DNA from: a virus
Lineage: Duplodnaviria > Caudoviricetes
IMG/VR virus record: IMGVR_UViG_3300028805_003982
Strand: one strand, 5' to 3'
DNA: 64,000 nt
Shown: piece after piece, positions 1,353 to 62,870 of the stretch
How positions within the stretch are numbered: the first letter of the stretch is position 1
How the letters are laid out: each line of letters opens with the position of its first letter
The notes under the pieces: model-generated
What the model was told of the DNA's origin: nothing
Databases searched by the model: none
What the model saw: the letters and a program-made list of their open reading frames with translations, nothing else
Made by a program: the position numbers and the translations under genes

Positions 1353-2225
1353 ATGGATGTAAAGAAATCTGAACGACATGACGAACACGCGCTGGTCTCG
1401 CCTTCGTCTCTTGCAAGAACAGCGGCTTGCCCCGCTTCGTTGATGATAAACAAGAACGCCGGAAGCAATGAAACTGCTTATACGCTGGAGGGTACAAGGG
1501 CACACATGGTTGCCGAGTATTTCGCCAGAGAAGCGTTGGGGCTTCCTGCCATCATGAAGTTTGAGGAAATCCCCGACAAGACAAAGGAAATGGTCAGATA
1601 CGGCATGGATTATGCCAAGTTCGCATATATGATCAAAGCTACCATGGAAGCGACATCTTCTTTGCCGGTAGCAGCTTATTGTGAGCGTAAGGTCAGCTGC
1701 GAACCGGTTATCCCCGAATGTTGGGGTACGGCAGACCTTATGTTCGTAGGTTCAGACCGCATCAGTGTTGCCGATTATAAGTTCGGTGCCAATAAAGTAG
1801 AAGTTCTCGGTAATTTCCAGCTTAAAGCGTATGCTTTGGGCGCTTATCTTTCTTTAACTGAGAAGGAGAGGGCAGGGGTTACCTATGTTGATACGTATAT
1901 CTTCCAGCCCAGAGCCAACTTCTTGAAGGACGGCAAGCCTGAAAAGGGGTATTTCGGAGTGACATCTTATTCAGTAAAGGAACTGTTTAACTGGGCTAAG
2001 GTCATTACTCCTACAGTCCTTAAAGCAATCGACGGTGTTGATGAAAGGCTCGGCGGCGATCATTGTATGTTCTGCGCAGCTAAGGGTTCTTGTGAGATGG
2101 CATTAAACTATAAGAAGGATTTTAAGGCGTCCCTTGCTGCCGAAGAAGAGGCACAGGATGTGTCATTGGCAGACGCATACCAGCAGGGCGGGGACGACCT
2201 GGATACGCCCACTTATTCTTTGTAA
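1353..2225 (+). CDS. DUF2800-family Cas4/RecB-like PD-(D/E)xK exonuclease (phage-type)
   Basis: HALVSPSS..R..ACP, EGTRAH, WGTADL...VADYKFG, QLKAYALG and CMFC...C Fe-S-type cysteines; acidic tail ending TYSL. Confidence 0.85.
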   Translation: MDVKKSERHDEHALVSPSSLARTAACPASLMINKNAGSNETAYTLEGTRAHMVAEYFAREALGLPAIMKFEEIPDKTKEMVRYGMDYAKFAYMIKATMEATSSLPVAAYCERKVSCEPVIPECWGTADLMFVGSDRISVADYKFGANKVEVLGNFQLKAYALGAYLSLTEKERAGVTYVDTYIFQPRANFLKDGKPEKGYFGVTSYSVKELFNWAKVITPTVLKAIDGVDERLGGDHCMFCAAKGSCEMALNYKKDFKASLAAEEEAQDVSLADAYQQGGDDLDTPTYSL

Positions 2226-2511
2226 CATTGTTACTTTTCAATGACTGTTGTTGTGTTCTTATAAAATGTTGATTTTCCGTAGTTTTTAGAAACCAACATT
2301 CACGTTCGTTTTATAAAGTATTGCATTATTAATACTTTACAAGACAGCGGTAAATAAATGTTTACCGGGTTTTTCGATAAACCAACAAAAGATTTTTAAC
2401 AAAATGTCATACAATTTCCTGATTTAGAAGTTATAATAACTCGTAGGAATACCCACAATATACCCACTCTCAGCAGGCGTATTGTGAGATAGAACCAAGG
2501 AGAGCAGTAAT

Positions 2512-4749
2512 ATGTTATTTATTGATTTTGAGACCCGTTCGGCAACGCCCATCACTTCCGGTGTCTATAGATATGTTGAAGATCCGTATTTCCGCATTCA
2601 GCTTTTTTCGTTTGCGTATGACGATGATGAGATAACGACCTTAGATCTGATGAATCCGTTAGTCGTCATTCCGGAGCAGGTTAAGAAAGACATGCTGGAT
2701 AAGACCTGTACCAAAGTTGCTCATAACTCCCAGTTTGAACGTATATGTTATTCCAGGTTCTGCGGTATGCCTACGGGGCAGTATATAGAGCCCGAAGGCT
2801 GGATATGCACTATGACATTAGGTCTTTTCAGAGGCTTTCCTGCAAAGCTCGAAGCGTTGGGCAACGCTCTTGGCATACCGGAAGACGCCAAGAAGATGAA
2901 GGAAGGTAAGAGGCTTATTGCCAAGTATGCCGTACCTCAGAAGACTAAGACCGGTCAGATCTATTTCAACGAGCCCGAGCCGGATCTGTTCGGCGTTGAC
3001 ACTGATTGGGACACTTATAAGAAATACAATAATACCGACGTTGCCGCTGAGAGAGCGATCTACAAGGCTCTTGTAAGACGTGGTGGCGGTTACGGCATGA
3101 TGGGAGCAAACGGCGTTTGGTCACCCACGCTTTGGGAAGAATTCTGGATCTCCGAAAGGGTCAATGACAGGGGAGTCAGGCTTGACAGAAAGTTTGTCAA
3201 CGGTGCGGTGGATCTTTCCAATGTCTTTTCCGAGAAGCAGGCAAAGGAGTTTAAGGCTACTTGTGATAAGATCGCCAAACTTCGCGGAGTGTCTGAGATA
3301 GAAAATGTTAAATCGATCCAGCAGCTTCAGGCAGTCTCCGGTTTTACTTCCGTTAAGAAAGAGGCATTAACAGATTATCTTTCGCATCATAAGGAACCCA
3401 AGACCGAGATGGAAAAGCTGCTCTGCGATTTCTGCCGTTACCGTTTGAGCGACGGCAAGACATCCGTTAAGAAGTATGAGAAGATGCAGGAGTGTATCAA
3501 TTCGGACGGCAGGGTAAGAGGGCTCTTCCGCTTTGGCGGTGCAGGGCAGACCCTTCGTTATGCGGGAAGGCTCGTTCAGCTTCAGAACCTTTCCAAGAAC
3601 CATTTCGGTACCATCGAAAAGGACGGCGTTCTGGTATCACCTGAAGTGCAGATCCTGAAAGCCCGTATCTCAAAGCTTGATCAGACGGTCTTTGACGAGT
3701 CCGAGGATTTTCTTGATATCCTGTCTCAGCTTGTAAGACCGTCACTTATCCCGGCTAAAGATCACATCTTTGCCGTTGCCGATTTCTCTGCTATCGAGGC
3801 CCGTGTCCTTTCGTGGCTTGCAGGAGAGCAGTGGCGTATAGACGCGTTCAGGAACGGTGAAGACATCTATTGTGCAACTGCAAGTAAGATGTTCGGCGTT
3901 CCCGTTGTTAAGCACGGTGAGAACGGAGAGCTCAGGGCGAAGGGCAAGGTCGCTGAGCTGGCGTGCGGTTACGGCGGCGGAGTGGGTGCTCTGCAGGCGT
4001 TCGGAGCCGATAAGATGGGCATGAACGAAGAACAGATGAAGGAGATAGTCACTAACTGGCGTAACAGTTCCCCCAGGATCACGGGTCTGTGGTGGGATCT
4101 TGAAAGGGCTGTCGTAGACTGTCTCCTGACAGGTGAGATGCAGCAGCTTGCCAAATATGTGGGGCTCAGGGTCTATGCGCTTACAAATGAGTTGGGTAAC
4201 ATGGATCTTATAATAGAGCTTCCCAACGGCAGAAGCCTGTTCTATAACGATGCGGAAATAAGAGATGCGAAAGATGACCCCATTAACCTCAGCGGACGCG
4301 GCATGGATCAGAGATCTCTGTCAATACAGCGCAGGAAGGTCGAACAGATCTCTTTTATGAGAACCGAAAAGAACAATCTTTTGAGGACTCCCACTTATTC
4401 CGGTAAACTCACCGAGAATGTTATACAGGCTCTTGCAAGAGACCTTTTGCAGGAAGCGCTGAAGAATCTTCAGAACGAAGGTTACGGCGTTGTTGCGCAT
4501 ATCCACGATGAGTGCATCGTTGAAGTTCCCAAGATAAAGCCGGACGGCACTTTCAAGACTCCTGAAGAACTTACGGCAGAACTCGATAAGATAAGTGACA
4601 TCATGGCAAGGGGCTGCAGTTGGAGCAAAGGGCTTCCTCTACGTGCCGACGGCTATCTTTGTAATTACTACATGAAGGACAGCGAGGGCGCTATTGACCC
4701 CAAATACACAATGAATGATGACTGGGATATAGATCCCGACGATCTTTGA
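2512..4749 (+). CDS. Phage-type family A DNA polymerase with 3'-5' exonuclease domain
   Basis: Exo I IDFETRS, AHNSQFER; motif A ADFSAIEARVL; motif B RAKGKVAELACGYG; motif C HIHDE; AAGGAG RBS. Confidence 0.93.
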   Translation: MLFIDFETRSATPITSGVYRYVEDPYFRIQLFSFAYDDDEITTLDLMNPLVVIPEQVKKDMLDKTCTKVAHNSQFERICYSRFCGMPTGQYIEPEGWICTMTLGLFRGFPAKLEALGNALGIPEDAKKMKEGKRLIAKYAVPQKTKTGQIYFNEPEPDLFGVDTDWDTYKKYNNTDVAAERAIYKALVRRGGGYGMMGANGVWSPTLWEEFWISERVNDRGVRLDRKFVNGAVDLSNVFSEKQAKEFKATCDKIAKLRGVSEIENVKSIQQLQAVSGFTSVKKEALTDYLSHHKEPKTEMEKLLCDFCRYRLSDGKTSVKKYEKMQECINSDGRVRGLFRFGGAGQTLRYAGRLVQLQNLSKNHFGTIEKDGVLVSPEVQILKARISKLDQTVFDESEDFLDILSQLVRPSLIPAKDHIFAVADFSAIEARVLSWLAGEQWRIDAFRNGEDIYCATASKMFGVPVVKHGENGELRAKGKVAELACGYGGGVGALQAFGADKMGMNEEQMKEIVTNWRNSSPRITGLWWDLERAVVDCLLTGEMQQLAKYVGLRVYALTNELGNMDLIIELPNGRSLFYNDAEIRDAKDDPINLSGRGMDQRSLSIQRRKVEQISFMRTEKNNLLRTPTYSGKLTENVIQALARDLLQEALKNLQNEGYGVVAHIHDECIVEVPKIKPDGTFKTPEELTAELDKISDIMARGCSWSKGLPLRADGYLCNYYMKDSEGAIDPKYTMNDDWDIDPDDL

Positions 4750-4840
4750 CCTCTTATAATCTTGCAAGAGCTGACACCTTGCATGTCCGGGAGGTTTAAG
4801 GGTTACTATCTGTAAACGGTACAGAAAGGAGTAAACTTAC

Positions 4841-8339: not shown

Positions 8340-9383
8340 ATGAATACCAAGAATAGCCGTACAACCGGCGGTAACTGGCAGGAAGTAGGGATCGACATAA
8401 ACGGCATCGTCTGGGAAAACAAGGATATTGCGGATGCGGATATCGAACTGATAAAAAACTGTCTCGTATGTACCGGGTATTGTCCTTTGATAGACGGGTC
8501 TAATCCCGAACAGCCCGAGTTCCCGTTAGCTTATGCGGTCATTAAGGTTTCCGATCTTTCCGACAGTCTGCGTTCATATCTGGAGGACGTTTATAACCCT
8601 GTCCGTGACGTGTTCATATTGCAGTGCGATGCGCAGTTTGGCTGGACGGCTGTTGTCGGCAGCAGCGAGTATCTTAATAAATACATGGAAAACCCTGCGG
8701 GCATCAGTCCCTGTAAGACCGGTGCGTTAGTTTCATATATTGTAGCAAATGATGTGAGATTTAATAAAGAACTGACTAATTACGTAAACTGCGTGAATGA
8801 TGTCCTTTATAAGAACAAATTATATGAGTCATATAAGTTTATCTGCGTTGATCACGACCGTGATCTCATGGATAAGAACACCTTGTTCAGGATAAGCACA
8901 CCTTATCTGTATCGTATGGGTGATAAGTATCTGCCGGTTATTGCCGACGTGCGTTTCTTAAACGATTACTATATGAAGAATGAGTGCCATGAGCAGTACA
9001 AGAATTGTGGTTATCACATGAATAAGACAGCCCGTACCGAGGTTCTTCATGTGGAAAACCCCGACGGCTCTCTTACAAAGATAGATAAGCCGAACATAAA
9101 CGGTTTTGTCTTAAAAGATGATCCTTTTAATGACGTTTCCGGCAATGATGAAAAAGCTAAAAACAAGATCATTCACGATATCTTGGCAAAAGGCGGTGCA
9201 TCCTATTATTTGCAGGGCTGGGGGTTCAGGGTAGCAGAAAACGCGGAAAACCTCGTCACCTTTTCGGCAGAGGATTTCGGTGCAGGGTGCTTGCCTCTTA
9301 AGCATTTCTTGGACCCGAGGTGCGAATCCAAAGGCGATATTACAAGGTTCGATCACGAAGATAACGACATGCCGTCACTCTGA
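8340..9383 (+). CDS. Hypothetical protein (C-terminal ...DMPSL)
   Basis: 347-aa ORF with RBS, own promoter and terminator. Confidence 0.8.
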   Translation: MNTKNSRTTGGNWQEVGIDINGIVWENKDIADADIELIKNCLVCTGYCPLIDGSNPEQPEFPLAYAVIKVSDLSDSLRSYLEDVYNPVRDVFILQCDAQFGWTAVVGSSEYLNKYMENPAGISPCKTGALVSYIVANDVRFNKELTNYVNCVNDVLYKNKLYESYKFICVDHDRDLMDKNTLFRISTPYLYRMGDKYLPVIADVRFLNDYYMKNECHEQYKNCGYHMNKTARTEVLHVENPDGSLTKIDKPNINGFVLKDDPFNDVSGNDEKAKNKIIHDILAKGGASYYLQGWGFRVAENAENLVTFSAEDFGAGCLPLKHFLDPRCESKGDITRFDHEDNDMPSL

Positions 9384-9527: not shown

Positions 9528-10472
9528 ATGAAGGTTCGTGATTATCTTTCAAAGATCAAAAGCTGGTATTTAAGGCTTTCTCCCGCGGTTAAGCCGGGCG
9601 TATTCTCCGTTGCTCTCCTCTTCGTTCTTATTATGGTCGTATTTTTGATAATGGCCATAACAGGATGTGATAAAGTAAAGTCTTTTGCATCTGATGTCGA
9701 GTCAGAGGGCAAGAAGATCGTAGATGCAGGAGCTACAGTCGTATCAAAGGTCGAAGAGATCCAAAACGATGCCTCATCTCTGCAAAGCGCTGTTGAATCA
9801 GCAGTTTCTTCCGTCAGTGAAGCTGCTGAAGACATCCTTCCTTCAGATAATACCTGGCCTTCTTACGGTGTCGGACAGTTCGATCTTGACGAGGCTTGGA
9901 ACACCGAGGGTGATATTGTTATCCTCAATGACAATCAGCCTTATTTTTCAGACAGCGACAAGGTCAGAACGGACGCTTTTGAAGAGTATTCCGATCTGGA
10001 TTCCCTTAGCCGCTGCGGAGTTGCTTACGCTAATATCTGCACGGAACTGATGCCAACGGAGAAGAGGGAAGAGATAGGTTCTGTTAAGCCTTCCGGCTGG
10101 CATTCGGTTAAATACCCCGAACAGATCTCTGATAAGTACCTTTATAACAGATGCCATCTTATCGGGTTCCAGCTTGCAGGCGAGAACGCTAATCCCAAGA
10201 ACCTCATAACAGGCACAAGGTATCTTAATGTCACTTTAATGCTTCCTTATGAGAACGCTATAGATGACTTTATCGAAGCTAATCCCGACATGCACGTTTT
10301 ATACAGAGTAACTCCCGTTTTTGACGGTGATGATCTTGTGTGCAAGGGCATCATAATGGAAGGCTGGTCGGTAGAAGATAACGGCGACGGTGTTTGCTTC
10401 TGCATCTTTGAGAAGAACATTCAGCCGGGTATCACGATAGATTATGCAACAGGCGAAAGTCATATTTCATAA
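9528..10472 (+). CDS. Membrane-anchored/lipoprotein DNA/RNA non-specific endonuclease (DNA-entry nuclease type)
   Basis: N-terminal hydrophobic helix ending AITGC; LDSLSRCGVA, PSGWH, YNRCHLIG.QLAGEN, NLITGTRYLN, YRVTP motifs. Confidence 0.88.
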   Translation: MKVRDYLSKIKSWYLRLSPAVKPGVFSVALLFVLIMVVFLIMAITGCDKVKSFASDVESEGKKIVDAGATVVSKVEEIQNDASSLQSAVESAVSSVSEAAEDILPSDNTWPSYGVGQFDLDEAWNTEGDIVILNDNQPYFSDSDKVRTDAFEEYSDLDSLSRCGVAYANICTELMPTEKREEIGSVKPSGWHSVKYPEQISDKYLYNRCHLIGFQLAGENANPKNLITGTRYLNVTLMLPYENAIDDFIEANPDMHVLYRVTPVFDGDDLVCKGIIMEGWSVEDNGDGVCFCIFEKNIQPGITIDYATGESHIS

Positions 10473-10488
10473 CAGGAGGAAATGGATA

Positions 10489-10761
10489 ATGCTGGTTAGA
10501 ACAGATAGTGTAAGGTCTCCCCGGATGGTCAATATGGATAATTGTGATTATCTGTCCGTTGATATGGAGGCGGACGGAGCGGTCATACACGCAAACTTTG
10601 GCGGAGGTAACACAAAGGTTGTTCTTTCCCGCGGATTGGATGCTCGTGAGGCTGCACAGATCTTCGATGTAATATGTGATTGTTGGAGTAATGATGCTCC
10701 TGTTCTTGACATCGAAAACATGCGCCGGAGGATGTTTATTTCACATGACAGAAACTTATAG
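10489..10761 (+). CDS. Hypothetical protein (...HDRNL)
   Basis: AGGAGG RBS; operonic. Confidence 0.7.
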   Translation: MLVRTDSVRSPRMVNMDNCDYLSVDMEADGAVIHANFGGGNTKVVLSRGLDAREAAQIFDVICDCWSNDAPVLDIENMRRRMFISHDRNL

Positions 10762-10770
10762 GAGGCTTAT

Positions 10771-11553
10771 ATGTCTTTAAGTAAAGAAGAGCTGTTTGCC
10801 AAGTGTAAAGATTGGACATTGTTTGACGATGTGCTTCCGCGTAACGTTTTAGACGGAACCCCGTATTTCAAGTTGAGTATCCCCGGTTTTTACCGTTGGG
10901 GTCCCGGCTTTGTCGGTCAGGATGAGTTTCGTAAATTCCGTGCGGTAATGCGGGATTTCAAAGAGAACTTATCAGACATCATTACATCACAGCCTGTCAG
11001 GTTTGTTCCGTATGACAGATTCGGATCTGCTGACAGTATAGTAAAGATAACTGACGAAGAGCAGGTCGTGTATCTGCATCCGATGGAGTTTACCGGGTAT
11101 CTTCCGAAGTCGGATGTCGATAACATCATTTCTTTCATGCAGAGCGCGATAGATAAAGCATTTCCCGACAAACAGTATCAGGTAAGACTGACTGAGTTTT
11201 ACCCGACGGCGTCATTATCTGACGAGGAGTACAGGAAGCTGATAATGAAACATGCAGACGAGATCACGGAAAGGATGATAATCCTTTGTGAATGGTTCTT
11301 GTCCGGTCCCGGTAGCTCCGGTATCAAAGCTTCGAATGTCAGAGCAATTACCGAATGGGATCAAGCGGGTCTATCGTTTATCAAATATGGCGGGCGCATA
11401 CCGCGGAAAGGCGATATTCCGGGGTGTTTAAGCAGCAGCGATCCCGATTGGGCTGTTGTTGAGAAGATCGTTTCCAAGGCGGTGTCAGAAGGTAAGTTTA
11501 ATGACATTATAAATGCCGTAGAAGAACTTACACCAAGGAAAGAAGGGCTGTAA
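10771..11553 (+). CDS. Hypothetical protein, YLHPME motif (...RKEGL)
   Basis: GGAGG RBS; shares motif with 17504-18259. Confidence 0.75.
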   Translation: MSLSKEELFAKCKDWTLFDDVLPRNVLDGTPYFKLSIPGFYRWGPGFVGQDEFRKFRAVMRDFKENLSDIITSQPVRFVPYDRFGSADSIVKITDEEQVVYLHPMEFTGYLPKSDVDNIISFMQSAIDKAFPDKQYQVRLTEFYPTASLSDEEYRKLIMKHADEITERMIILCEWFLSGPGSSGIKASNVRAITEWDQAGLSFIKYGGRIPRKGDIPGCLSSSDPDWAVVEKIVSKAVSEGKFNDIINAVEELTPRKEGL

Positions 11554-11554
11554 G

Positions 11555-11866
11555 ATGATCGTTACCCGAGGTGAGTTTGATAAAACAAAAAAGGTTTACC
11601 GCGTCGAGTTGGCCGAAAAGCGGCAAAGGCAGGTTAACCGGTTCGGGCCGTTAAAGTTTTATAACCTCGAATGTTCGGAGCGGGAATGCCCGCAGTTCAT
11701 CAAAGACTGGTTTACCGATCCTTACATAACGGTAGAAGAAGAAATAGATACACCCGTGCGAAAACTCCGCGTTGGCAGTTACACCATAAATCAGCAGGGG
11801 GAACCCATATATAGATACGTAACCGGGCATTCGCCGGATAAATCGGATAACAACAAGGATCTTTAA
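11555..11866 (+). CDS. Hypothetical protein (...NNKDL)
   Basis: Translationally coupled ORF. Confidence 0.7.
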   Translation: MIVTRGEFDKTKKVYRVELAEKRQRQVNRFGPLKFYNLECSERECPQFIKDWFTDPYITVEEEIDTPVRKLRVGSYTINQQGEPIYRYVTGHSPDKSDNNKDL

Positions 11867-11886
11867 CATAAAGGAGGATTGGGAAA

Positions 11887-12456: not shown

Positions 12457-12473
12457 GCTTTGGGGGGTATGAT

Positions 12474-13019: not shown

Positions 13020-13032
13020 AGGAAGGAAGAAA

Positions 13033-52102: not shown

Positions 52103-52119
52103 CTGAAGGAGGATCTGAT

Positions 52120-52578: not shown

Positions 52579-52595
52579 TATCGGAGGGGTTTGAT

Positions 52596-54551
52596 ATGGG
52601 GCAGCATTACGACAGATTATTAACTGAGATAGGTCAGAATCACGCGCCTTTTATCGTGTATGATCTTGAAACGACCGGAAGGATGAACGGGCATGACAAC
52701 CGCATTACCCAGATAGCTTTAACAGCCTATCTGTGGAACCTTGCATCGGACAGATATGAACTCAGGGATCACATGTTCATTCTGGCAAAGCCCGATCCCG
52801 ATAATCTCAGATCGCTTATAAAGCGTGCAGAACCTACCAGAGAAAATGCCAGAGAAGAGCTTCGTTCGGAGTTCATGTTTAAATACGGCAGGGCAGAGAA
52901 GGAAGCATACGAAAAATGCAAAGAACAGCACGCTAAATATAAAGCATTGATAGAAGATTACAGAAACGGCACATATACAGGACGCTTCTCTTTGGATCTG
53001 TTAAAGAAAAGATCTCATGAATATGCTGCCAGAGCGCCATATTTAAAGAAGCTTTGGGATGAGAAAACGGCAAAGCTTGCCAATAATGATCCTTCTATGC
53101 AGGCGGAATGCAATAAATACATTGCAGACCATCTGGACGAAAAGATAGATGCCATGAAGAAGACTCCGTCTTTGAAAGAAGAACTGGCGCTTCAGGGCAT
53201 TACTCTTGATACCTATATTGCCGGTAATCTTGGGCTGACCGGAAGCGAGATGCAGACCGGTATAATGGAGTTTTTGTCCAAGTATGACAGTCCGGATACC
53301 ATCTTTATTACAAACGGTACCTATTATCAGAAGCATTATCTTGCCAAGGCCGGCATGGGCATTACAAAGGACTGGGATCACATAGTTGACTATGCACATA
53401 TCCTCAAAGAAAACATAAAGGACCCCAGCAAGATCCGTCTCAGTTCTTTTGTTGAAGAGTATCAGAAAAAGACCGGGAAACAGATCAAGACGTTCGACTC
53501 GTTTACCAAAGCGTTATGCTTTGCCGAGATGGCTGCAAGCACTTGCGGCGTCAAGATCTCCAATAGAAGTCTTGAGCAGCTGACAAACGCCGTTAAGACC
53601 GAGGCCTTTAAGAATGATGAGAATTATGTCATGTCTTTGTCCGCCATGGCAAACCACAACTGGATCAGTATAGATAAAGCCATTTCTGCTACATACACCT
53701 TCAGCTCTTTGGAGTTTGTCCAGTTCGGCAACGACAGAAGGTATGTGGATCTTGATAAGATGTTTGAAGTAAATGACAATTTCGAGATCACCTTGGAAGG
53801 CGAGAAGGAACCTATCAAGACATGGGACGAGCTTGAAGCGAAGATAAAAGCTCTTAACAGCCACATTTCAAATGACCTTCTGGAAAAGATAAAGACTAAG
53901 TATGAAGAACTTGAGGTCGAGGTCAATTTAAAGAAACAGAACGCTTCGGCCCATATCAAAGAGCATGACGCGGATAATGAAGACGTAGAGGTCAGGAAAG
54001 AACGCGAAAAGATACGGGACAACCTTGATGCCAAAGACAATGTCAGACAGGATTCCCCTGAGGTCGATAAGGTAAAGGATCTCGAAAAGAGAGCCGCTGC
54101 AGTTACCGGGCAGCTGTCTGACAATGCACATAAGGCCGCAGCCAAGATAGTAAAGCAGATGCTTAATATCGAACAGTATCTTGCTCCTGAGGCGTCCGCA
54201 TTAAACGACCTCGAAAAGAAATATAAGATCTCACCGGGCCGTTCGGACGATGTCCGCATCTGCGGGTACCTGATCGACGGCGGTAAGTTCGCCATCCTCG
54301 GCGCATGGTCTCAGCGCTCGGACAAGAGTTTAGAAAAGGGTACTGAGCAGATAGAAGATACTCTCTTGAAGAGGGGTTTTAATCCGTTTAAGCCTTTGTT
54401 TGATCCCTCTTACATCGATTCTGTTAAGCGGGATATGTCCGGGCTTGCGTGCAGCCTTTTGGAGAAGTACATCGACGATCAGACAAAGACATTGAACTCA
54501 ATCCCTGCAGATCTGGATATTACCGACTTCGGCGATCATTCAGGGCTGTAA
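52596..54551 (+). CDS. DEDDh/DnaQ-like exonuclease-fold protein with large helical insertion, probably degenerate (...DHSGL)
   Basis: Exo I VYDLETTG...ITQIA; later Exo II/III acidic residues not recognisable. Confidence 0.65.
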   Translation: MGQHYDRLLTEIGQNHAPFIVYDLETTGRMNGHDNRITQIALTAYLWNLASDRYELRDHMFILAKPDPDNLRSLIKRAEPTRENAREELRSEFMFKYGRAEKEAYEKCKEQHAKYKALIEDYRNGTYTGRFSLDLLKKRSHEYAARAPYLKKLWDEKTAKLANNDPSMQAECNKYIADHLDEKIDAMKKTPSLKEELALQGITLDTYIAGNLGLTGSEMQTGIMEFLSKYDSPDTIFITNGTYYQKHYLAKAGMGITKDWDHIVDYAHILKENIKDPSKIRLSSFVEEYQKKTGKQIKTFDSFTKALCFAEMAASTCGVKISNRSLEQLTNAVKTEAFKNDENYVMSLSAMANHNWISIDKAISATYTFSSLEFVQFGNDRRYVDLDKMFEVNDNFEITLEGEKEPIKTWDELEAKIKALNSHISNDLLEKIKTKYEELEVEVNLKKQNASAHIKEHDADNEDVEVRKEREKIRDNLDAKDNVRQDSPEVDKVKDLEKRAAAVTGQLSDNAHKAAAKIVKQMLNIEQYLAPEASALNDLEKKYKISPGRSDDVRICGYLIDGGKFAILGAWSQRSDKSLEKGTEQIEDTLLKRGFNPFKPLFDPSYIDSVKRDMSGLACSLLEKYIDDQTKTLNSIPADLDITDFGDHSGL

Positions 54552-54584
54552 CAAAAACACATAACAGGTAAAGGAGGGACAAAG

Positions 54585-55016
54585 ATGGACAAGCGTGAAA
54601 AGCAGCGTCAGATAGCTGAACAGATGCTGGCAGGTGCCGCCATTGAGTGGGGCTCCCAGTTCTTTGAGATCAAAGAAGATAATGTTAAATATGAAAGAGG
54701 TCTGGTACTTACCGTTTATAACGACAAGGAACACAAATGCAGGGAATGGAGTCACTGCATCGATCTGGATACCATCGAAGTGGAAGACCTTCCCGAATTC
54801 AGTGAAGCTGTTGTTCAGAAAAGAACTCTTGATAACATCATGGACGCTGTTGAAGACGCCGTTTATGACATCAGGGAAGATTATGACATCCCACAGCCTG
54901 ATAAGGAAACGAGACTGCCTGCTGACGTACAGCGTTCCGCAGAGCAGTTGGCTTCTTCAGTCGCGAGATCATTAGTTAAGGAAAAAGAGATAGATGACAG
55001 CAGAAAGAGTCTTTGA
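54585..55016 (+). CDS. Hypothetical protein (...SRKSL)
   Basis: AAGGAGG RBS. Confidence 0.75.
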   Translation: MDKREKQRQIAEQMLAGAAIEWGSQFFEIKEDNVKYERGLVLTVYNDKEHKCREWSHCIDLDTIEVEDLPEFSEAVVQKRTLDNIMDAVEDAVYDIREDYDIPQPDKETRLPADVQRSAEQLASSVARSLVKEKEIDDSRKSL

Positions 55017-55033
55017 CCGTAAGGAGGTAAGTT

Positions 55034-55378
55034 ATGACTATTGAATTTGATTGTGTGAGCAATGATACCAGCACCGTTTATGTTAATTCGGCAAGTTTTA
55101 AGCTGGATTGCGGAAAGATCGTAACCGTTGACAGAGATTTAACAAGAATATCCAGATCAGATAACGGTCACATATCAATGGCTTGGAGCGAGATCTATAT
55201 ATGGGACGGTGAAAACGAAATCCGGGATATAGAAGACCTGTTTTCGAAGGGAGCTACCTTGGTTGGTATTGAAATTGAAGACGACGCGCCCGACGGATAT
55301 AACATAGAGGCAATTTCCTGTAAGGTGTACGGAAAAGACTTCGAACTTAATGCTTGTAGCGACGGGATCGGAATGTAA
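55034..55378 (+). CDS. Hypothetical acidic protein (...DGIGM)
   Basis: AAGGAGGT RBS. Confidence 0.72.
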   Translation: MTIEFDCVSNDTSTVYVNSASFKLDCGKIVTVDRDLTRISRSDNGHISMAWSEIYIWDGENEIRDIEDLFSKGATLVGIEIEDDAPDGYNIEAISCKVYGKDFELNACSDGIGM

Positions 55379-55392
55379 AACGCGGGTTTTTT

Positions 55393-55421
55393 ATACTATT
55401 TTCAAGAATCGCTGTTATATA
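55393..55421 (+). promoter_or_regulatory. Element-specific promoter (GTTCTA class, weaker match)
   Basis: ATACTA-17 bp-TATATA with TG extension; ATACTATTTTC can pair with GAAAATAG-AG-GTAT over the RBS/start. Confidence 0.45.
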
Positions 55422-55487
55422 TTAAATATGGGTAGTTAATACGGAAGTATTACCGCCAGTATAATTTTGGCAAAGGAAAATAGAGGT

Positions 55488-56318
55488 ATGTCTGATTTTA
55501 ATAACAAGTTCATCATCGTCGGCAAGAGTGGCGTAGGTAAGGATTACATTACCAAGATATTCGAAGACCTGGGCAAAGAGAGGCTGGTTACTTATACGAC
55601 CAGGCCTCAGCGTTATCCCGGGGAAGATACACATAAGTTCATAACAGAACAGGAGGCTGCTTCTTTTGCCAACTCCGAAAAGTATCTGCGTACGTCAGTT
55701 GCGCAACACGAGTATTTTACGACCTTGGAAGACGTGAAAAAGGCGGATGTAATTATCTTAGATCCGGCAGGCGTTAAGGAGATCTTATCCAGAATGCCCG
55801 ATCAGACATTTCATCTGATCTACATTAATGCAGATCCCGCAGAGCGTATGCGGGCTGCCCTTTTAAGACAGGACAGACGTTTTGACAGGGCTTGTCCGGT
55901 TCTTTCGGATAAACTGGACTACATCATGCACAAGACCCGTTCATCCAAAGTGGTTGATTCGTACAACAACGCTGTAAGCGAAGCTATCGAAACGATCGGT
56001 AAGTTCAGTAAGTATACCAGTTTTACTGATGAGGATAAAAATACGCTGGCTAAGGAAGTGGGTATCGTCTACTCGCGTTTCGTTGATGAAGAGCAGGCGT
56101 TTGATGACTTTGAGCATGTTTTTTACGGATATGTGGGAAGAAGGGTTGAAACCCCCGATAACGTAGTCTTTGTCTGGGATATTACGAATAATTTTGACCC
56201 TTCGGACATCAGAGAAAAGGTTCAGGAGATCGTCCGTACCGATGAAATGGCCAAGAAAATGTGCGAAAAGAATTTTTGCGGCATTAACGATAAGGGCGAT
56301 GGCGACAGGGGGTTATGA
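55488..56318 (+). CDS. Guanylate kinase-like protein (...GDRGL)
   Basis: IIVGKSGVGKD P-loop; VTYTTRP.R..GE...H.F GMP-binding motif; ILDPAG. Confidence 0.8.
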   Translation: MSDFNNKFIIVGKSGVGKDYITKIFEDLGKERLVTYTTRPQRYPGEDTHKFITEQEAASFANSEKYLRTSVAQHEYFTTLEDVKKADVIILDPAGVKEILSRMPDQTFHLIYINADPAERMRAALLRQDRRFDRACPVLSDKLDYIMHKTRSSKVVDSYNNAVSEAIETIGKFSKYTSFTDEDKNTLAKEVGIVYSRFVDEEQAFDDFEHVFYGYVGRRVETPDNVVFVWDITNNFDPSDIREKVQEIVRTDEMAKKMCEKNFCGINDKGDGDRGL

Positions 56319-56319
56319 T

Positions 56320-57126
56320 ATGGATTACGCAAAACTCAGGCTCAGCGCTTTGATAGATCTGTATAAGTCCGGGGATAAGGAAGCCGGGGCTGCTCTTGTT
56401 GAAAAGAAGATCCCTTCAATTACCAAACTTGCCGAATCTTTTGGCAATACCGGTGTTGTCACCGTTGATGATTTGGTGCAGGTAGGGTGCCTGGGTCTTC
56501 TCAAAGCTCTCGATAAGTTCGACAGATCCAAGGGTGAAAACTTTAACGCATACGCTTCTTTCTGGATCAGGCGTGAAATGCAGCACGAGCTTGAAGAGAA
56601 TGTAAGGACCATTCATGTTCCGCTTCAGGTTCAGAACGACATCCGTAAGATCGCCGAGTATCAGGAAGACTGTTATGGAGCGGCAGACGAAATCCCGACC
56701 GTCAGGAATATAGCAGAGCATTTCGATTTTACCGAGGATTACGTACGCGAGTGCATAAAGCTTATGGACCATACAGACCCGTTAAATAAACATAAGGAAG
56801 TATTGAGTGATCTGGGCAATGATTATATCGAAACGACCCCTGAGCAGCTCAGCAGACAAGGGGTTTTGAAAGATGAATTGATCAAAGCCATAAATAAAAC
56901 ACTGACACCCCGCGAGGCTTTTGTTATCCGTGAGCGTTATTTGAATGAAGATGAATCGCTCGTGCCGTTTGAAAAAATAGGCAAAAAGATCGGCCTCACA
57001 AGAGAACGCGTAAGACAGATAGAGGCCAGAGCTTTATATAAACTGCGCCACTATAACAAAAATCTGCAGTTTTTAGGGGATTCGAACGGCGTTCCGCTGG
57101 AACCCGATCACAGCAGAAAGCTCTAA
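56320..57126 (+). CDS. Sigma-70 family RNA polymerase sigma factor (...HSRKL)
   Basis: Region 2 DDLVQVG.LGLLKA.DKFD..KG.NF..YA.FWIR; region 4 LTPRE..VI..RY...IG..IGLTRERVRQIE.RAL.KLR. Confidence 0.9.
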   Translation: MDYAKLRLSALIDLYKSGDKEAGAALVEKKIPSITKLAESFGNTGVVTVDDLVQVGCLGLLKALDKFDRSKGENFNAYASFWIRREMQHELEENVRTIHVPLQVQNDIRKIAEYQEDCYGAADEIPTVRNIAEHFDFTEDYVRECIKLMDHTDPLNKHKEVLSDLGNDYIETTPEQLSRQGVLKDELIKAINKTLTPREAFVIRERYLNEDESLVPFEKIGKKIGLTRERVRQIEARALYKLRHYNKNLQFLGDSNGVPLEPDHSRKL

Positions 57127-57144
57127 AAAAGGAACGGAAAGGAA

Positions 57145-58164
57145 ATGAAATACATGACACCTGAAGAATACTGGCACATTCCTGCCGAAGAAATGGAAGT
57201 TTTATCTCCCGAAAGGGAACAGGACCTTGCAAGACGCGCCCGCAACGGGGACAGTACTGCAAGGGATGAGTTGGTCTCGCATAATTTAAGGCTTGTAATG
57301 TCGCTGGCCAATAAAGCCACGTCTTCCGGAGTAGGCGTCGACCAAGACGATAAGATCCAGGATGGCATGATGGGGCTGATGCGTGCGATAGAATCCTTTG
57401 ACCCGGATCTGGGTTTCAAATTTTCAACCTATGCCGTTTGGTGGATCAATCAGGCGATCGGAAGAGGCATCGCTAATGGAGACAGAGCCATAAGGATTCC
57501 CGTTCATGCATTGGATCGTCTTAACGCCATGAATAAGTTCCGCAAACAGTACCAGCAGGAAACCGGTGAGATCCCGGATAGGGAAACGATGCGAAACGCT
57601 TTTTCGGACCTGTCTGAAGATACTTTCAACCTGTTGTACAGCGGCTGCGTGGAACCGTTATCTCTTGATAATGTCGTAAGGCCCGACGAAGGAGAAGACG
57701 GAACCGTCGGCGATCTGATAGCTTTTTATAATGCGGATATAATGGCCGGGGATACCGTGTCTTCCGTAGAACGTGACAATGAATTGGAAGATCTGAAACG
57801 CAGAGTCCTCTTTGCTGTTGAAACATATCTCGATCCCAGAGAGCAGGAAGTCATCAAATGCAGATTCGGCCTTTGCGGCAGACCCATCTCGACTTTACAG
57901 GATGTCGGCGAAAAGATGGGCATCACACGGGAGCGAATCCGTCAGATAGAAAACAAGGCCCTGCGCAAACTCCGTATGAAAGGGTATAACATGCTTAACG
58001 GCCTCGATGGACACGAATTTCCGAAGATCAGGGTCGAGTCAAAACAGGACTTCAACAATATCCAGGTCGGTACCGGAGGGGGCTATGCAGGTATGTCAAA
58101 AGGGGAGAGGATCGAGCGCCCCTCTGACGGTCAACATAGTTTCGGTTCCGGTTCAAACTTGTGA
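57145..58164 (+). CDS. Sigma-70 family RNA polymerase sigma factor, RpoD/RpoS-like regions 1.2-4 (...SGSNL)
   Basis: LV.HNLRLV..LA, IQDG.MGLMRAIE.FDP.LGFKFSTYAVWWI.QAI, IRIPVH, TLQDVG..MGITRERIRQIE.KALRKLR. Confidence 0.93.
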   Translation: MKYMTPEEYWHIPAEEMEVLSPEREQDLARRARNGDSTARDELVSHNLRLVMSLANKATSSGVGVDQDDKIQDGMMGLMRAIESFDPDLGFKFSTYAVWWINQAIGRGIANGDRAIRIPVHALDRLNAMNKFRKQYQQETGEIPDRETMRNAFSDLSEDTFNLLYSGCVEPLSLDNVVRPDEGEDGTVGDLIAFYNADIMAGDTVSSVERDNELEDLKRRVLFAVETYLDPREQEVIKCRFGLCGRPISTLQDVGEKMGITRERIRQIENKALRKLRMKGYNMLNGLDGHEFPKIRVESKQDFNNIQVGTGGGYAGMSKGERIERPSDGQHSFGSGSNL

Positions 58165-58578: not shown

Positions 58579-59019
58579 ATGAATTGTGTTATGCTTACCG
58601 GACGTCTTACTAAGGACGTCGAGCTGATCGTTAAGGATGAGAACCGTTGTCATACATCGTTTGACATCGCCGTTGACCGCAGGTTTCCGGACAAGGAAGG
58701 CAACAAGAAGTGTGACTTTATCAAGTGCATGGCCTTCGGCAGCAGAGCGAAGTTTCTCAGTAACTACTGCAAGCAGGGCGACCTTGTTCTTCTTTCCGGA
58801 ACTTTGGAGACTTCTACTTATGAGAAGGACGGAGTTAAGGTAAAGTCTTACTGCGTAGTCATCGACGGGATCGAACCCCTGTCTAAGAAGAAGAGTCCTT
58901 CTGTCAGCGGAGAGGATTCCGAAGATGCTGATGAGGCGACTTCTGATGCAGCTCCTGCTGAGGGTGATATCAATACCGATACCGGCAGCGATGATGACGG
59001 CACTCTTTTCCAGGTATGA
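58579..59019 (+). CDS. ssb: Single-stranded DNA-binding protein
   Basis: MN.V.LTGRLTKD.EL, F.IAVDR, DFI.C.AFG..A, G.L.T..YEKDG; acidic tail. Confidence 0.9.
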   Translation: MNCVMLTGRLTKDVELIVKDENRCHTSFDIAVDRRFPDKEGNKKCDFIKCMAFGSRAKFLSNYCKQGDLVLLSGTLETSTYEKDGVKVKSYCVVIDGIEPLSKKKSPSVSGEDSEDADEATSDAAPAEGDINTDTGSDDDGTLFQV

Positions 59020-59063
59020 CGTTTTCTGGTATAATCCAACGTATAATTTTTCGGGGGTGATCT

Positions 59064-59276
59064 ATGGATAAGCTGTTTATTCAGATCGGTTTATTTAAGA
59101 TCTGGTATGATCCTGACCTCATTAACATCTCCGACCCGGAGGTAGTCAAGGTTATTGAGGAGTTCAGAAGTAAGTATGCCTGTCTGACTGAGAAGGATCT
59201 GAGCGAGTATGAGGAGAGAGATCTCAGTATCTGGCCGTATCCTTATGACGGCGAGAAATACAGGATCGCTCCGTAA
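59064..59276 (+). CDS. Small hypothetical protein
   Basis: GGGGGTG RBS. Confidence 0.6.
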   Translation: MDKLFIQIGLFKIWYDPDLINISDPEVVKVIEEFRSKYACLTEKDLSEYEERDLSIWPYPYDGEKYRIAP

Positions 59277-59289
59277 GTGCTGATATAAA

Positions 59290-59318
59290 GTTCTAAACTC
59301 CCGTTTAGATGTGATACT
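59290..59318 (+). promoter_or_regulatory. Element-specific promoter (GTTCTA class) inside an RBS-masking hairpin
   Basis: GTTCTAAA; 17 bp to GATACT; CTCCCGTTT/AAACGGGAG and AAAGTTC/GAACTTT stems. Confidence 0.6.
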
Positions 59319-59353
59319 TAAGATATTGGTATCTTCAAACGGGAGGAACTTTT

Positions 59354-59848
59354 ATGTTAAGCGTATATGAACTCAGACCCGGCATGATCTTAAGCGGCAG
59401 GCTGCCGTTTCCCAATGGTGAAATGCCCTGCAAGGACAGGTTTTATATTGTAGCCGCCGTAGAGGATCGCAAAGCATACGTTTGGTATTGTAATTCTCAA
59501 AAACCGTGGCGGCAGCCGGGCCAGTACAATAACGAGTTCTGGTATGGAACTAACGAAGCACCGGTTCCGCCATTCCATAAGGGAGGCGTTTTACAGCTGC
59601 AGAATATAAGAAGGCTTTCCGGTGAGGATCTGGGAAATCTCTCCATCGCTTACGGGGGAAATACGATCCCGTATTCATTATTGATAGATTTTAAGGAAGC
59701 TTTCATAGAAGGCATGGTCTTAGGTAAGTGGCAGATCACCAACCCCAAAAGGATACCGCAGGAGTTTCAGAGAATGATAGATCTTGTGAACAGTCACAGG
59801 ATGGATGTTGAAAAAGAAATGCTAAGTACGTCAAAACGGATGGATTAA
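59354..59848 (+). CDS. Possible PemK/MazF-fold protein
   Basis: G.I....LPFP.G....KDR..IV....YCNSQ resembles the PemK N-terminal pattern; weak. Confidence 0.4.
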   Translation: MLSVYELRPGMILSGRLPFPNGEMPCKDRFYIVAAVEDRKAYVWYCNSQKPWRQPGQYNNEFWYGTNEAPVPPFHKGGVLQLQNIRRLSGEDLGNLSIAYGGNTIPYSLLIDFKEAFIEGMVLGKWQITNPKRIPQEFQRMIDLVNSHRMDVEKEMLSTSKRMD

Positions 59849-59850
59849 AG

Positions 59851-60012
59851 ATGACAAGCAAAAGAAAAAGAGAAGAGATCAGGCTTAAAGACGAGGGGAA
59901 GATAAGGGAGTTTAAAAGAAAACCGCCCATTCCTCCGAATAAAGTCGTTCCTTTGAAAAACAAGGAGAAACTGGAACAGATCATCAGAAAGGAAGCGGAA
60001 AGAGAATTATGA
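59851..60012 (+). CDS. Small basic hypothetical protein, 53 aa (...AEREL); absent from ORF track
   Basis: Starts 2 nt after the upstream stop; the stop overlaps the next ATG. Confidence 0.6.
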   Translation: MTSKRKREEIRLKDEGKIREFKRKPPIPPNKVVPLKNKEKLEQIIRKEAEREL

Positions 60013-60170
60013 TGAAGAACATAAACAATCTGAAACTGAATAAGCGTGAGGAATACGTCAAGACATACAATAAACTGTGCAGCGCTCTGTTCGTGGTTTG
60101 TTTACTCGGTGTGGGTGTTTTTCTGTTTCCCATCATCGTGGGTTTCTTTGTCGGGTTCTTCGGTGGTTAA
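60009..60170 (+). CDS. Small membrane peptide, 53 aa; absent from ORF track
   Basis: Basic N-terminus followed by hydrophobic ALFVVCLLGVGVFLFPIIVGFFVGFFGG. Confidence 0.6.
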   Translation: MMKNINNLKLNKREEYVKTYNKLCSALFVVCLLGVGVFLFPIIVGFFVGFFGG

Positions 60171-60197
60171 GACCAGATCCATTTTAGCGCTTTTACT

Positions 60198-60229
60198 AAC
60201 GGGTCATTAAGACCCGTTTATTTTTTTTT
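60198..60229 (+). terminator. Rho-independent terminator
   Basis: AACGGGTC-ATTAA-GACCCGTT followed by TATTTTTTTTT. Confidence 0.85.
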
Positions 60230-60267
60230 CTTGTATAACACGTTTTGTAAAAAACACTGTTATAATA

Positions 60268-60470
60268 ATAATTGTAGGAAAACAACGGTAATTCCTACGA
60301 CAATTCGCTTGATAAGATCGATTGACTGTTCATTGACATTACCGTGCTTTGCCAACCTTATACCTCTAACGGTCTTGTACGGTCATCGATTTCATACTTT
60401 CTTCTTTCAACGGGCTTCTATTACACCAACCTCTCATTTGTTTTTTATCACCTCAGAAGCCCGTTTTTTA
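60268..60470 (+). ncRNA. Candidate structured small RNA (about 200 nt)
   Basis: TGTTATAAT promoter at 60258-60266; three stems; the last (AACGGGCTTCT/AGAAGCCCGTT) ends in a U-tract; no RBS-supported ORF. Confidence 0.5.
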
Positions 60471-60628
60471 ATGCCCGGATTTTTGAGAAAAACTGATTAT
60501 TAAAATGTTCTGGAACGGGTCGTAAAAAATCCCTGAAACGTCGGTAAAACAAGGTTTTGCTGGGTGTTTAGGTGGTATAATAACAGTGTAGGAAAACAAC
60601 ACGAAACTGGTTTTTAAAGGAGATTTTT

Positions 60629-62062
60629 ATGGCACAGATTACACCCGTTCAGATCAGCATGAATTTCGATATCGCTTCAGAGGTTAAGGCAGGTTCTGCA
60701 TCAACCGTTCTTTCCGCTTTGGCAAAAGAAGGCAAGGCTCTTCAGGAGGCTGCCGATGAAGCCGCCAAGAAGGAAGAGGAAGTTACGAAGGAGAAGACGA
60801 AGAAGGAAGCAGTTGTAGTCAAGACTGTTAAGTTGGCATTAGCGGATTATCCCGATTTCATTTTGGAGAGGGATTATGCACACAAGGTCGTTCAGTTCGT
60901 CTATCTTGTTTCCGCAGGAACCTGTTTCCTTAAAACGATAAACAAGAAGTCCGGCGAGAGCACGACAGAACTCTACACTGATCCTGTTCAGTACACACGC
61001 CTGTTTGACAGGGCTTCGGATAAGGTAGAGTTTTCTGAAGGTTTTTGGATCGGCAAGATCGACGGCAGTATGGATAGTGCCCGTTGGCTTCTGAGCGTTA
61101 TTCGGTCTGAAGATGACCGTAATGTCATCGTTCACAAGGCCGCCAAGTGTAACTATGCAGAGTTTGGTTTTGAGCCTTCCCGTCAGCCTTCGGGCAAGAT
61201 CTACATAGCATTTCCGAAGTTGTTTGATCTTATAATGAAGCTGGTCAACGAAGCCGGTTCTGATCAAAATCTGGTAAGATGTTTTGATTACAATTGCGGA
61301 CGTGCTTTTATTGGTTGGTTGCTTTCAGAGTATGGTCTTGATAATACAAGGGATTACATCAGCTGTGTATTCCAGACCCCGTTGATAACAACAGGCAATT
61401 TCGGTTTCCCCAATGTTTATTCTTGTTCATATCGGATGGACCAAACGGTTGAGGAATTGCGTGAATTCTGCCGTATCAACGCAGATTACAAGCGCTTTAA
61501 GGAGTATACTCTCTATCAGTCAGTGCAGATGGGGTATGGATGGAAGTGGGATGATTTCTTTACGGAATGGGATGATACATTGCGTATGCAGACCTATGTA
61601 TATGGCAAGGTTACTGACAAGTATCCCACATGTCTTCCTATGACCCACAGGCAGCTTTCCACAATGACACAGATCAGGAAGATCGACATTGACGAGATGA
61701 AGTTGGCTAAAGCGTTTGAGACTTGTAAGGTTTTTGAGGGCTTTGTTTGGGACACGGATCTTAAGGTGGTAGCACCCGCAAGCCGTCAGGACATCCTGAA
61801 CGAAGCAACCCGTCAGAGCAACTGTCTGGCAAGTTATATGAATAATATCATCGACGGCAGATCGATAATCCTGTTTGTCCGTAAGAAGGACGATATCGAA
61901 GCATCACACATCACGATGGAACTCGATCCTGTTAACTACACTATCGTACAGTGTAAATATGCGTTTAACCGTGAAGTACCCGTTGATATTCAGAGGAAGA
62001 TCGCCGAACACATCCGTAAGCGTTTGGCAAAGGGAGACGAACAGCAGCAGGCGGTTTGCTGA
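60629..62062 (+). CDS. PcfJ-like domain protein
   Basis: D.L.MQ....YP..L...H, P.S..DI..EA..QSNCLASY...I..G.S.ILFVRK...TMEL...Q.K..FN; AAGGAG RBS. Confidence 0.8.
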   Translation: MAQITPVQISMNFDIASEVKAGSASTVLSALAKEGKALQEAADEAAKKEEEVTKEKTKKEAVVVKTVKLALADYPDFILERDYAHKVVQFVYLVSAGTCFLKTINKKSGESTTELYTDPVQYTRLFDRASDKVEFSEGFWIGKIDGSMDSARWLLSVIRSEDDRNVIVHKAAKCNYAEFGFEPSRQPSGKIYIAFPKLFDLIMKLVNEAGSDQNLVRCFDYNCGRAFIGWLLSEYGLDNTRDYISCVFQTPLITTGNFGFPNVYSCSYRMDQTVEELREFCRINADYKRFKEYTLYQSVQMGYGWKWDDFFTEWDDTLRMQTYVYGKVTDKYPTCLPMTHRQLSTMTQIRKIDIDEMKLAKAFETCKVFEGFVWDTDLKVVAPASRQDILNEATRQSNCLASYMNNIIDGRSIILFVRKKDDIEASHITMELDPVNYTIVQCKYAFNREVPVDIQRKIAEHIRKRLAKGDEQQQAVC

Positions 62063-62097: not shown

Positions 62098-62217
62098 AAT
62101 ATTTCTTCTAATTTGTTGTTCAAACGGCGGTAAAACAAGCATTTTTCGGAGTAACGGCTGTTATAATTAAATTATAGGTAAACAACATAAAAACCCACAT
62201 TTTTCAGGAGGTCTATT

Positions 62218-62472
62218 ATGGCAAGGATAATCAACTCCATCGAATATGATACCCCGACGGTTATGGGCAATGTCTCTACGCTCGGATGCTGCGTGGAAGC
62301 TGACAGCTATGAGGAAGCAAAGGCTTTGGCTGTAAAGTTTGCTCAGGAGCATTTCCAGAACAAGATGGAACAGATGCTGGCAACACAGCTTCTTTTGCAG
62401 TCTCTTGAAGAAGAGTATGACACGCCTACGTTTGATGGCTCGGAAGATGACGGTTGGGACGATGATTGGTGA
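62218..62472 (+). CDS. Small hypothetical protein with acidic tail
   Basis: AGGAGGT RBS; own promoter at about 62128-62167. Confidence 0.7.
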   Translation: MARIINSIEYDTPTVMGNVSTLGCCVEADSYEEAKALAVKFAQEHFQNKMEQMLATQLLLQSLEEEYDTPTFDGSEDDGWDDDW

Positions 62473-62609
62473 TATGAGATTTGTTTACGATCAGTAATAT
62501 AAAGGAGGTTTTAGCGCAGGGTGCGGAGGGGTCTCCGCACTCTATCCGTTAAAAGCCGGATGCGCCAAGATTGTGCAAGGTCATTAAGTTAAGGGAAAGG
62601 AAATCGAAA

Positions 62610-62870
62610 GTGAAAATATCTGAAGTAAAACGCATCATAGAAGGTCTTGAAAGATTATCAAGAAATTTGGAAAATTTGCGAGCTCTATCAACAGGTGTTA
62701 TGGCTTCCCTGCCCGATAAAGATAAAGCTTGTGAATGGAGTGAGAAAATAGCAGATATGGCGAATGTAGATTCTTCACTTCCTAATATTTTTCAGGAAGC
62801 AAAAAATGTTACCGATAATGAAATCAATCGGTTGAATGAATTGATTGACAATGCAGACGTGAATCTTTAA
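62610..62870 (+). CDS. Hypothetical helical protein (...ADVNL)
   Basis: AAAGGA RBS before GTG 62610. Confidence 0.6.
   Translation: MKISEVKRIIEGLERLSRNLENLRALSTGVMASLPDKDKACEWSEKIADMANVDSSLPNIFQEAKNVTDNEINRLNELIDNADVNL

Follow-up and report, generated by a model that had tools for sequence, protein, structure and literature searches.

Unrelated proteins of a giant, presumably conjugative Firmicutes-type element share a leucine-ended C-terminal tail, a clade-specific protein tag with a tentative role in conjugative co-delivery

Why do dozens of unrelated proteins encoded on one mobile element end in the same kind of dipeptide, and what could read it? The question is raised by a stretch of 64,000 nucleotides (IMG/VR record IMGVR_UViG_3300028805_003982, hereafter the window), which lies on a metagenomic contig of 234,910 bp and presumably belongs to a giant, uncultured, conjugative element of Firmicutes type. 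The initial annotation of this DNA had counted 39 Leu-ended proteins among about 87. The recount was very close, with 38 of 85 open reading frames (ORFs) on the plus strand, which carries all credible genes of the window (G+C approx. 44%). As the ORFs follow a simple longest-ORF rule, their starts are uncertain, while their ends are fixed by the stop codons.

With a six-frame greedy ORF set, 35 of the 76 plus-strand ORFs of the window were Leu-ended. Loci of three related giant elements (L001, L002 and L004) were reached through the nearest relatives of a 651-aa protein of the window (52596-54551), and 14/31, 12/33 and 21/32 of their plus-strand ORFs ended in Leu. These loci and the window form the clade sample. 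When pooled, 82 of its 172 ORFs (48%) had a terminal Leu as compared with 8.4% Leu at internal positions (binomial p = 6e-42), whereby the four loci come from related elements found through one marker family and the counts are thus not independent events. The tagged proteins are rarely orthologous between the clade loci, and a handful of orthologues are shared with the window. Controls run with the same caller gave 12.6% Leu ends for antisense ORFs and 16.2% for off-frame sense ORFs of the same DNA, 5.8% for 896 ORFs from 47 phage loci with a homologue of the DNA polymerase PolA and 5.6% for 142 ORFs of a Ruminococcus (Firmicutes) metagenome-assembled genome (MAG).

The tail is not spread evenly over the window. 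In a first run, 16 of 18 consecutive genes had been described as tailed, and all listed endings were reproduced exactly between 10444 and 21248, namely DRNL, KEGL, NKDL, RPNL, GRGL, EHEL, KRSL and MRGL, followed by RKSL, QHRL, RNSL, EPGL, GKDL, EKEL, NNEL and PMDL. The remaining two genes have the ends IGF and DLS. The sole Pfam matches of this run are AAA_28 (15464-16084) and DUF4314 (16032-16526). For a second run, 9 of 11 genes had been claimed; 8 of 10 were found in the plus-strand ORF set used here (REGL, KPEL, RSGL, TFNL, HSGL, RKSL, SRKL and GSNL), and the higher count needs an additional gene at approx. 55488-56318, which is among the gene calls of the source contig, matches guanylate kinase weakly and is reported to end in DRGL. 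The cargo block at 25517-40669, which includes a type I restriction-modification system (HsdM, HsdS and HsdR), had been called nearly tail-free (2 of 15 genes). Here, 2 of the 12 ORFs in the block were Leu-ended, compared with 33 of the 64 outside it (Fisher p = 0.03). Together with the spurious ORFs and the unrelated genomes, the block served as stand-in for the host chromosome. Of the proteins with predicted membrane helices, 3/16 were Leu-ended.

The composition of the tail was studied on the 80 Leu-ended ORFs of at least 60 aa from the window and the three related loci. The consensus reads D-[R/E]-[H/P/R]-[G/S/N/D/E]-L-COOH behind a polar, net-acidic linker. The penultimate residue is Gly (19), Ser (16), Asn (11), Asp (10) or Glu (10) in 66 of 80 tails, in line with the Gly or polar residue initially noted at this position. 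Asp is enriched 2.9-fold at position -5, Arg 3.3-fold at -4, where Glu is enriched too, and His 7.3-fold, Pro 4.1-fold and Arg 2.5-fold at -3. Along the 14 residues before the end, polarity is above and hydrophobicity below that of the protein bodies, and the linker is probably unstructured. The last 20 residues have a mean net charge of -2.1, with 62% of the tails at -2 or lower and 4% at +2 or higher. No second hydrophobic position is enriched. Among the ends other than Leu, Ile, Met, Val and Phe are enriched at the terminus, often behind Gly, which agrees with the earlier statement that most exceptions end in another hydrophobic residue. Four window proteins carry [I/L]-G-F at or near the C-terminus (ISIGF, SLGFDI, TLGFNI and SLGFCRT). 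Clp unfoldases dock on ClpP via IGF/LGF loops; the likeness of these four ends to the docking loops may be a coincidence.

Shared protein ends can also be a by-product of the nucleic acid, if a ribosome-binding site, the stop context or a junction repeat dictates the final codons. The terminal Leu is encoded by all six codons (n = 82: TTA 29, CTT 22, TTG 13, CTG 9, CTA 5 and CTC 4) and followed by all three stop codons. The first codon base is split between T (42) and C (40), the third is free, and every position flanking the stop holds less than 0.35 bit of information. Ser at -2 is drawn from TCN as well as from the unrelated AGY codons, and Phe (TTY) is scarce at the terminus in comparison with Leu, although both are YTN. 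Leu ends occur regardless of the distance to the downstream gene (overlapping 15/29, close 36/60, distant 28/79), and the bias remains at gaps above 25 nt; the gene at 1344..2225, for example, ends in TTG and TAA with the next gene 286 nt off. Furthermore, the Shine-Dalgarno sequence of the Leu clade lies mostly 3' of the stop codon, and spurious ORFs of the same DNA reach just 12-16% Leu ends. A DNA-level cause could draw on the terminal TTA, which is commoner than among internal Leu codons, and on the non-Leu ends Ile, Met, Val and Phe, which likewise use NTN codons. Given the six Leu codons, the uninformative flanks, the independence of gene distance, the two Ser codon boxes and the rarity of Phe, the tail is selected at the protein and not at the DNA level, as the initial annotation had proposed from its codons and stops. 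The by-product explanation is thus largely refuted and has hardly any probability left. As a separate observation, the gene at 8340-9383 has its stop and the four codons ahead of it (MPSL) within a terminator-like hairpin that is followed by a T-run (9369-9389), so that its tail codons double as terminator stem. TAG is a rare stop in the window, L001, L002 and L004 with 6 of 172 ORFs, next to 110 TAA and 56 TGA.

Outside the clade, in six more distant loci, 36 of 103 ORFs were Arg-ended, mostly after Glu or Asp, compared with 3.5% in the MAG from which one of these loci comes. Ends of the type KGEER or KGExK are frequent in L006, L013, L014, L015 and L021, where they result from the AAAGGAG of the next gene being read in frame together with an ATGA stop/start overlap. 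The terminal Arg is encoded by AGR codons in 89% of the cases. Much of the acidic-Arg pattern is ribosome-binding-site overlap, while a residue of [D/E]-R ends persists, as 13 of 53 have no gene within 25 nt. This origin and the AGR bias weaken the idea of two dialects, with one clade using Leu and another acidic-Arg ends. The KGEER-type ends demonstrate that shared tails which look like a protein tag can have their cause in the DNA.

The initial annotation had regarded the tail as an addition, and in seven proteins it is located 14-62 residues past the last recognisable Pfam domain: the DUF2800, DUF3846, DUF4314 and AAA_28 proteins, the CCA-adding enzyme and both sigma factors. The DUF4314 domain stops at residue 149/164, and region 4 of the two sigma-70 homologues stops 24 and 62 residues short of the C-terminus. 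The best phage homologues of PolA (35-41% identity) align up to residue 723-726 or so of 745 and end in ...FYKKD, some 20 residues short of the window protein and with no Leu tail. Orthologues within the clade retain the terminal dipeptide while their linkers cease to align. The DUF3846 orthologue of L001, for instance, shares 42% identity and ends in ...ELGGL, and the L001 orthologues of the genes at 42024..46317 keep a tail (SGHSL, GLDL) behind linkers that do not align.

The family of the 651-aa protein, whose N-terminal consensus FIVYDVETTG is a DEDD-type signature, gives the same picture. Its five closest homologues all end in [G/S/D]-L, though their C-terminal halves barely align; the contigs that carry them measure 13-235 kb, and four of these exceed 125 kb, while contigs with cluster relatives reach 385-389 kb. 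Among 50 more distant homologues, 4 end in Leu and 22 in an acidic residue followed by Arg. In GTDB genomes, the family was detected on two MAG contigs only (Holdemanella and Ruminococcus), neither of which belongs to the Leu clade. The 373-aa protein has 445 homologues, mostly of approx. 190 aa, which end in a motif of their own, DPxQG[CWFYL]. This motif was considered as a shared tag and rejected because it belongs to the 373-aa family itself: in L043, an ordinary conjugative element with VirD4, the neighbours of the 373-aa homologue share no common ending. The 200-aa domain of this family defines a large family with no Pfam match, and some members run into poly-acidic tails that end in Trp or Tyr.

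It had been noted that identical ends in homologues elsewhere would speak against an added tag; the homologues outside the clade lack the tail. The tail is thus a clade-specific add-on that is maintained in divergent relatives, as follows from the protein-level selection, the position past the domains and the absence from outside homologues and cargo. It is not general to conjugative elements, to the carrier protein families or to Firmicutes genes. An exposed, polar and acidic linker that ends in one hydrophobic residue with a free carboxylate has the form of a docking tip for a single partner, and it is likely that the tag is read by one common partner.

The leading candidate for this partner, favoured tentatively, is the conjugation machinery. 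The clade has appended the tail to about half of its soluble proteins, among them replisome components, nucleases, both sigma factors, enzymes of RNA repair and many orphans. The tail would dock on a single shared reader, possibly the coupling protein or an adaptor of the element's conjugative substrate-receptor machinery, and the tagged proteins would be passed to the transfer channel and enter the recipient alongside the DNA. The recipient might thereby obtain a starter proteome, in which the 235-kb element would immediately have a polymerase, sigma factors and anti-defence enzymes of its own, and the co-delivered sigma factors could start transcription from element-specific promoters. That a whole family of conjugative elements of 100-390 kb loads approximately a hundred of its own proteins into the channel by this minimal tag appears rather doubtful at present.

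Co-transfer of proteins has precedents. The F-like pED208 channel moves at least 16 plasmid and 32 host proteins, which carry C-terminal or internal signals (PMC11288057), and polyvalent proteins of conjugative elements have been proposed to be delivered together with DNA (PMC5512222). Substrates of type IV secretion systems (T4SS) resemble the tailed proteins in that unstructured C-terminal signals are found on many unrelated proteins of a transfer-competent element (PMC8406263, PMC11288057); the Leu tail differs in being sharp, strictly terminal, net acidic and so widespread that about every second protein of this element, presumably a Gram-positive one, carries it, and its link to a coupling protein is a proposed one. 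The repertoire of polyvalent proteins is also encountered here (ART-PolyVal/DUF3990, SNF2, primase, nucleases), yet polyvalent proteins are giant polypeptides cut by built-in peptidases, whereas here separate small proteins have their own tails (PMC5512222). Conjugation-associated families of the window, namely PcfJ, DUF3846, DUF4314, DUF5688, DUF3990/ART-PolyVal and SSB, are in favour of delivery. The ERRGL end of a TraC-like DUF3991/Toprim primase in L002 and the co-transfer known from F-type systems are weak further points for it. The SNF2 helicase of L002 is tailed too. The end GLCGL, a cloning scar of a screen with the F plasmid, had no effect on transfer and is uninformative for the Leu tail.

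Several points weigh against conjugative delivery. VirD4, VirB4 and relaxase were found neither in the window nor in the fetched loci of the Leu-tail clade, and a homology search with the VirD4 of a relative gave 6 matches, none of them from this clade. The VirB/D4-type signal of Agrobacterium, which the initial annotation had cited, is rich in Arg and positively charged, while the tails are net acidic (mean -2.1). The Dot/Icm-type signal has a Glu block at approx. -10 to -17 and a hydrophobic residue at -3 or -4, as in RalF of Legionella. The Leu tails share the acidity of Dot/Icm signals, but their conserved hydrophobic residue is at -1, which matches no defined VirB/D4 or Dot/Icm signal; hydrophobic residues were observed at -3 in 13/80 and at -4 in 13/80 tails. 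Moreover, the SSB of the window has no Leu end, and we know of no precedent for a 745-aa polymerase or a CCA-adding enzyme passing through a Gram-positive channel.

Bacterial C-terminal degrons such as ssrA-LAA and MuA have the same general form as the tail, with an exposed polar linker that leads to a hydrophobic last residue and its free carboxylate. The tail could accordingly deliver its carriers to an AAA+ unfoldase or protease, be it Clp, Lon or FtsH of the host or a Lon-like ATPase encoded by the element, which would keep a burst of replication, transcription and anti-defence proteins short-lived. Some carriers are potentially harmful (nucleases, sigma factors), and a contig with a distant relative of the 373-aa family also encodes an FtsH homologue. 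However, no defined signal for ClpX, ClpA or Lon was matched. The ssrA-like ClpX degron ends in LAA or AA-COOH, while the tails end in G/S/N/D/E-Leu, Ala is found at -2 in 2/80 tails, and neither a terminal Ala-Ala nor a basic tail of the MuA type is present. Destroying about half of a proteome would be costly, and a protease usually acts with one specificity throughout its host, yet the tail is absent from cargo genes and ordinary elements. A degron is considered a serious but less likely alternative. With regard to PDZ readers, position 0 of motifs I-III fits the terminal Leu, but PDZ position -2, which is tail position -3, is mainly His, Pro or Arg, and Pfam revealed no PDZ domain in the window.

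Acidic C-terminal tips are further known as docking sites in replication and transfer. SSB-Ct ends in DDDIPF, the acidic tails of T7 gp2.5 and gp4 end in Phe, the tail of F TraD binds TraM, and in T4, the polymerase gp43, gp33 and the late sigma factor gp55 dock with their C-terminal tails on the clamp gp45. By analogy, the Leu tail might gather enzymes on the element DNA at a replication or transcription hub such as SSB, a sliding clamp or a polymerase. A flexible acidic linker with a terminal hydrophobic residue and carboxylate is common to both, and the carriers include PolA, the DEDD exonuclease, the DUF2800 nuclease, sigma factors, a primase and the SNF2 helicase, just as the T4 carriers include a polymerase and a sigma factor. 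Besides, the related locus L004 encodes a clamp-loader subunit similar to DNA polymerase III delta. The SSB-Ct/gp2.5 type has an acidic run before the terminal hydrophobic residue; the tails are net acidic and enriched in Asp at -5, yet they often have Arg, His or Pro at -3 and -4 and no Asp run. Sliding-clamp motifs (QL[SD]LF or QLxLxL) need two or three spaced hydrophobic residues plus Gln at approx. -5, while the tails have a single conserved one and show no enrichment of Gln at -5 or -6 (1.6-fold at -3). No clamp was recognised in the window, and most carriers are small orphans with no sign of a DNA-related function. Known acidic tips occur on one to a few carriers, or as one tail with many readers, and it would be unusual for a single replisome hub to have over 80 partners. 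Docking on such a hub is likewise seen as a serious but less likely alternative.

A third possibility is a cargo-loading or packaging tag for a capsid, an encapsulin-like shell or an RNA cage whose gene would lie in another part of the element. The core of encapsulin cargo-loading peptides is G-S-L, which the [G/S]-L core of the tails and the variants SLGFDI and TLGFNI loosely resemble. The upstream hydrophobic positions of these peptides are absent from the tails, though, and no capsid, portal, terminase or encapsulin/HK97-fold family was detected in the window or the fetched clade loci. A profile of the 651-aa exonuclease family also found no relative in IMG/VR. Packaging is regarded as very improbable.

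C-terminal address tags as a kind are already known. Full-text literature searches on T4SS signals, polyvalent proteins, ROOL-bearing conjugative plasmids and conjugative co-transfer of proteins yielded no account of such a tail, and we know of no mobile element with about half of its soluble proteome under one sharp terminal motif. If the conjugation machinery reads the tail, a substrate signal would for the first time be defined for a conjugative channel of a Gram-positive system. Delivery, if true, would also be evidence that conjugation can move a large protein payload, and the tag would be simple, portable and directly usable in protein-delivery assays. If it is a degron or hub tag, it would show how giant plasmids separate their private proteome from that of the host. 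In each case, the tag offers a sequence handle for the core proteins of an uncultured element family and turns dozens of orphans into one testable set, and the 651-aa protein serves well as a marker of these giant elements.

The gene content of the window is summarised in Table 1. Pfam revealed a phage-type replication module with the DUF2800 nuclease, the family A polymerase and a VapE-like primase-helicase. The conjugation-associated families named above are typical of Firmicutes conjugative elements. Further matches were obtained for two sigma-70 homologues, an RlaP-like nucleotidyltransferase and the CCA-adding enzyme, and most of the remaining window proteins had zero matches in Pfam, PHROGs or ESM Atlas. 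Neither PLSDB nor INPHARED contained a DNA match to the window. In a plasmid protein search, two marker proteins stayed unmatched, and the matches of PcfJ were distant only.

Table 1. Features of the window with their positions and C-terminal ends
Position	Strand	Feature	C-terminal end	Basis or remark
1344..2225	+	DUF2800 / PD-(D/E)XK nuclease	...TPTYSL	Pfam domain to residue 279/293
2512..4749	+	Family A DNA polymerase (PolA), 745 aa	...DIDPDDL	Pfam
8340..9383	+	347-aa orphan	...NDMPSL	No Pfam, PHROG or ESM Atlas match
10444..21248	+	First run, 18 consecutive genes	16 [polar]-Leu	
14812-15450, 23566-23853, 33796-34668, 58241-58510		Four proteins with [I/L]-G-F at or near the end	[I/L]-G-F	
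21901..22296	+	DUF3846 protein	...DVHTL	Domain to residue 106/131
25517..40669	+	Cargo block: HsdM, HsdS, Pua-like, HsdR, pilin-like, SecY, MFS transporter, GGDEF-EAL	Without tail	Pfam
42024..46317	+	Seven small genes	GTSL, IEGL, GQSL, RPSL, plus FEL, LGV, HGM	
45196..46317	+	373-aa protein: 200-aa N-terminal domain and clade-specific extension	DRPSL	
47836..49230	+	CCA-adding enzyme homologue	...SGTNNL	Last Pfam domain to residue 448/464
49839..58164	+	Second run, 10 genes in ORF set	8 [polar]-Leu	
52596..54551	+	651-aa protein, N-terminal DEDD-type exonuclease motif	...GDHSGL	
56320..58164	+	Two sigma-70 family proteins	...DHSRKL and ...GSGSNL	Starts are gene calls of the source contig
58579..62062	+	SSB and PcfJ, conjugation-associated, without Leu tail	...TLFQV and ...QQAVC	Pfam
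62571..62870	+	99-aa protein, last tailed gene of the finding	...NADVNL	

Two observations stand apart from the tail. The SecY of the cargo block (35345-36688) is full-length, at most 50% identical to any SecY among 400 sampled Firmicutes genomes, and adjoins the pilin-like protein and the MFS transporter; it could belong to a divergent accessory translocon. A related element of 196 kb encodes an array of 14 tRNAs (L008:7809-8041, minus strand). Its tRNAs with Leu anticodons (taa, taa and tag) have 74-76 nt and lack the long variable arm of bacterial tRNA-Leu, while the Ser and Tyr tRNAs of the array retain it. One of the tRNAs with Leu anticodon has a Leu-like D-arm and A73.

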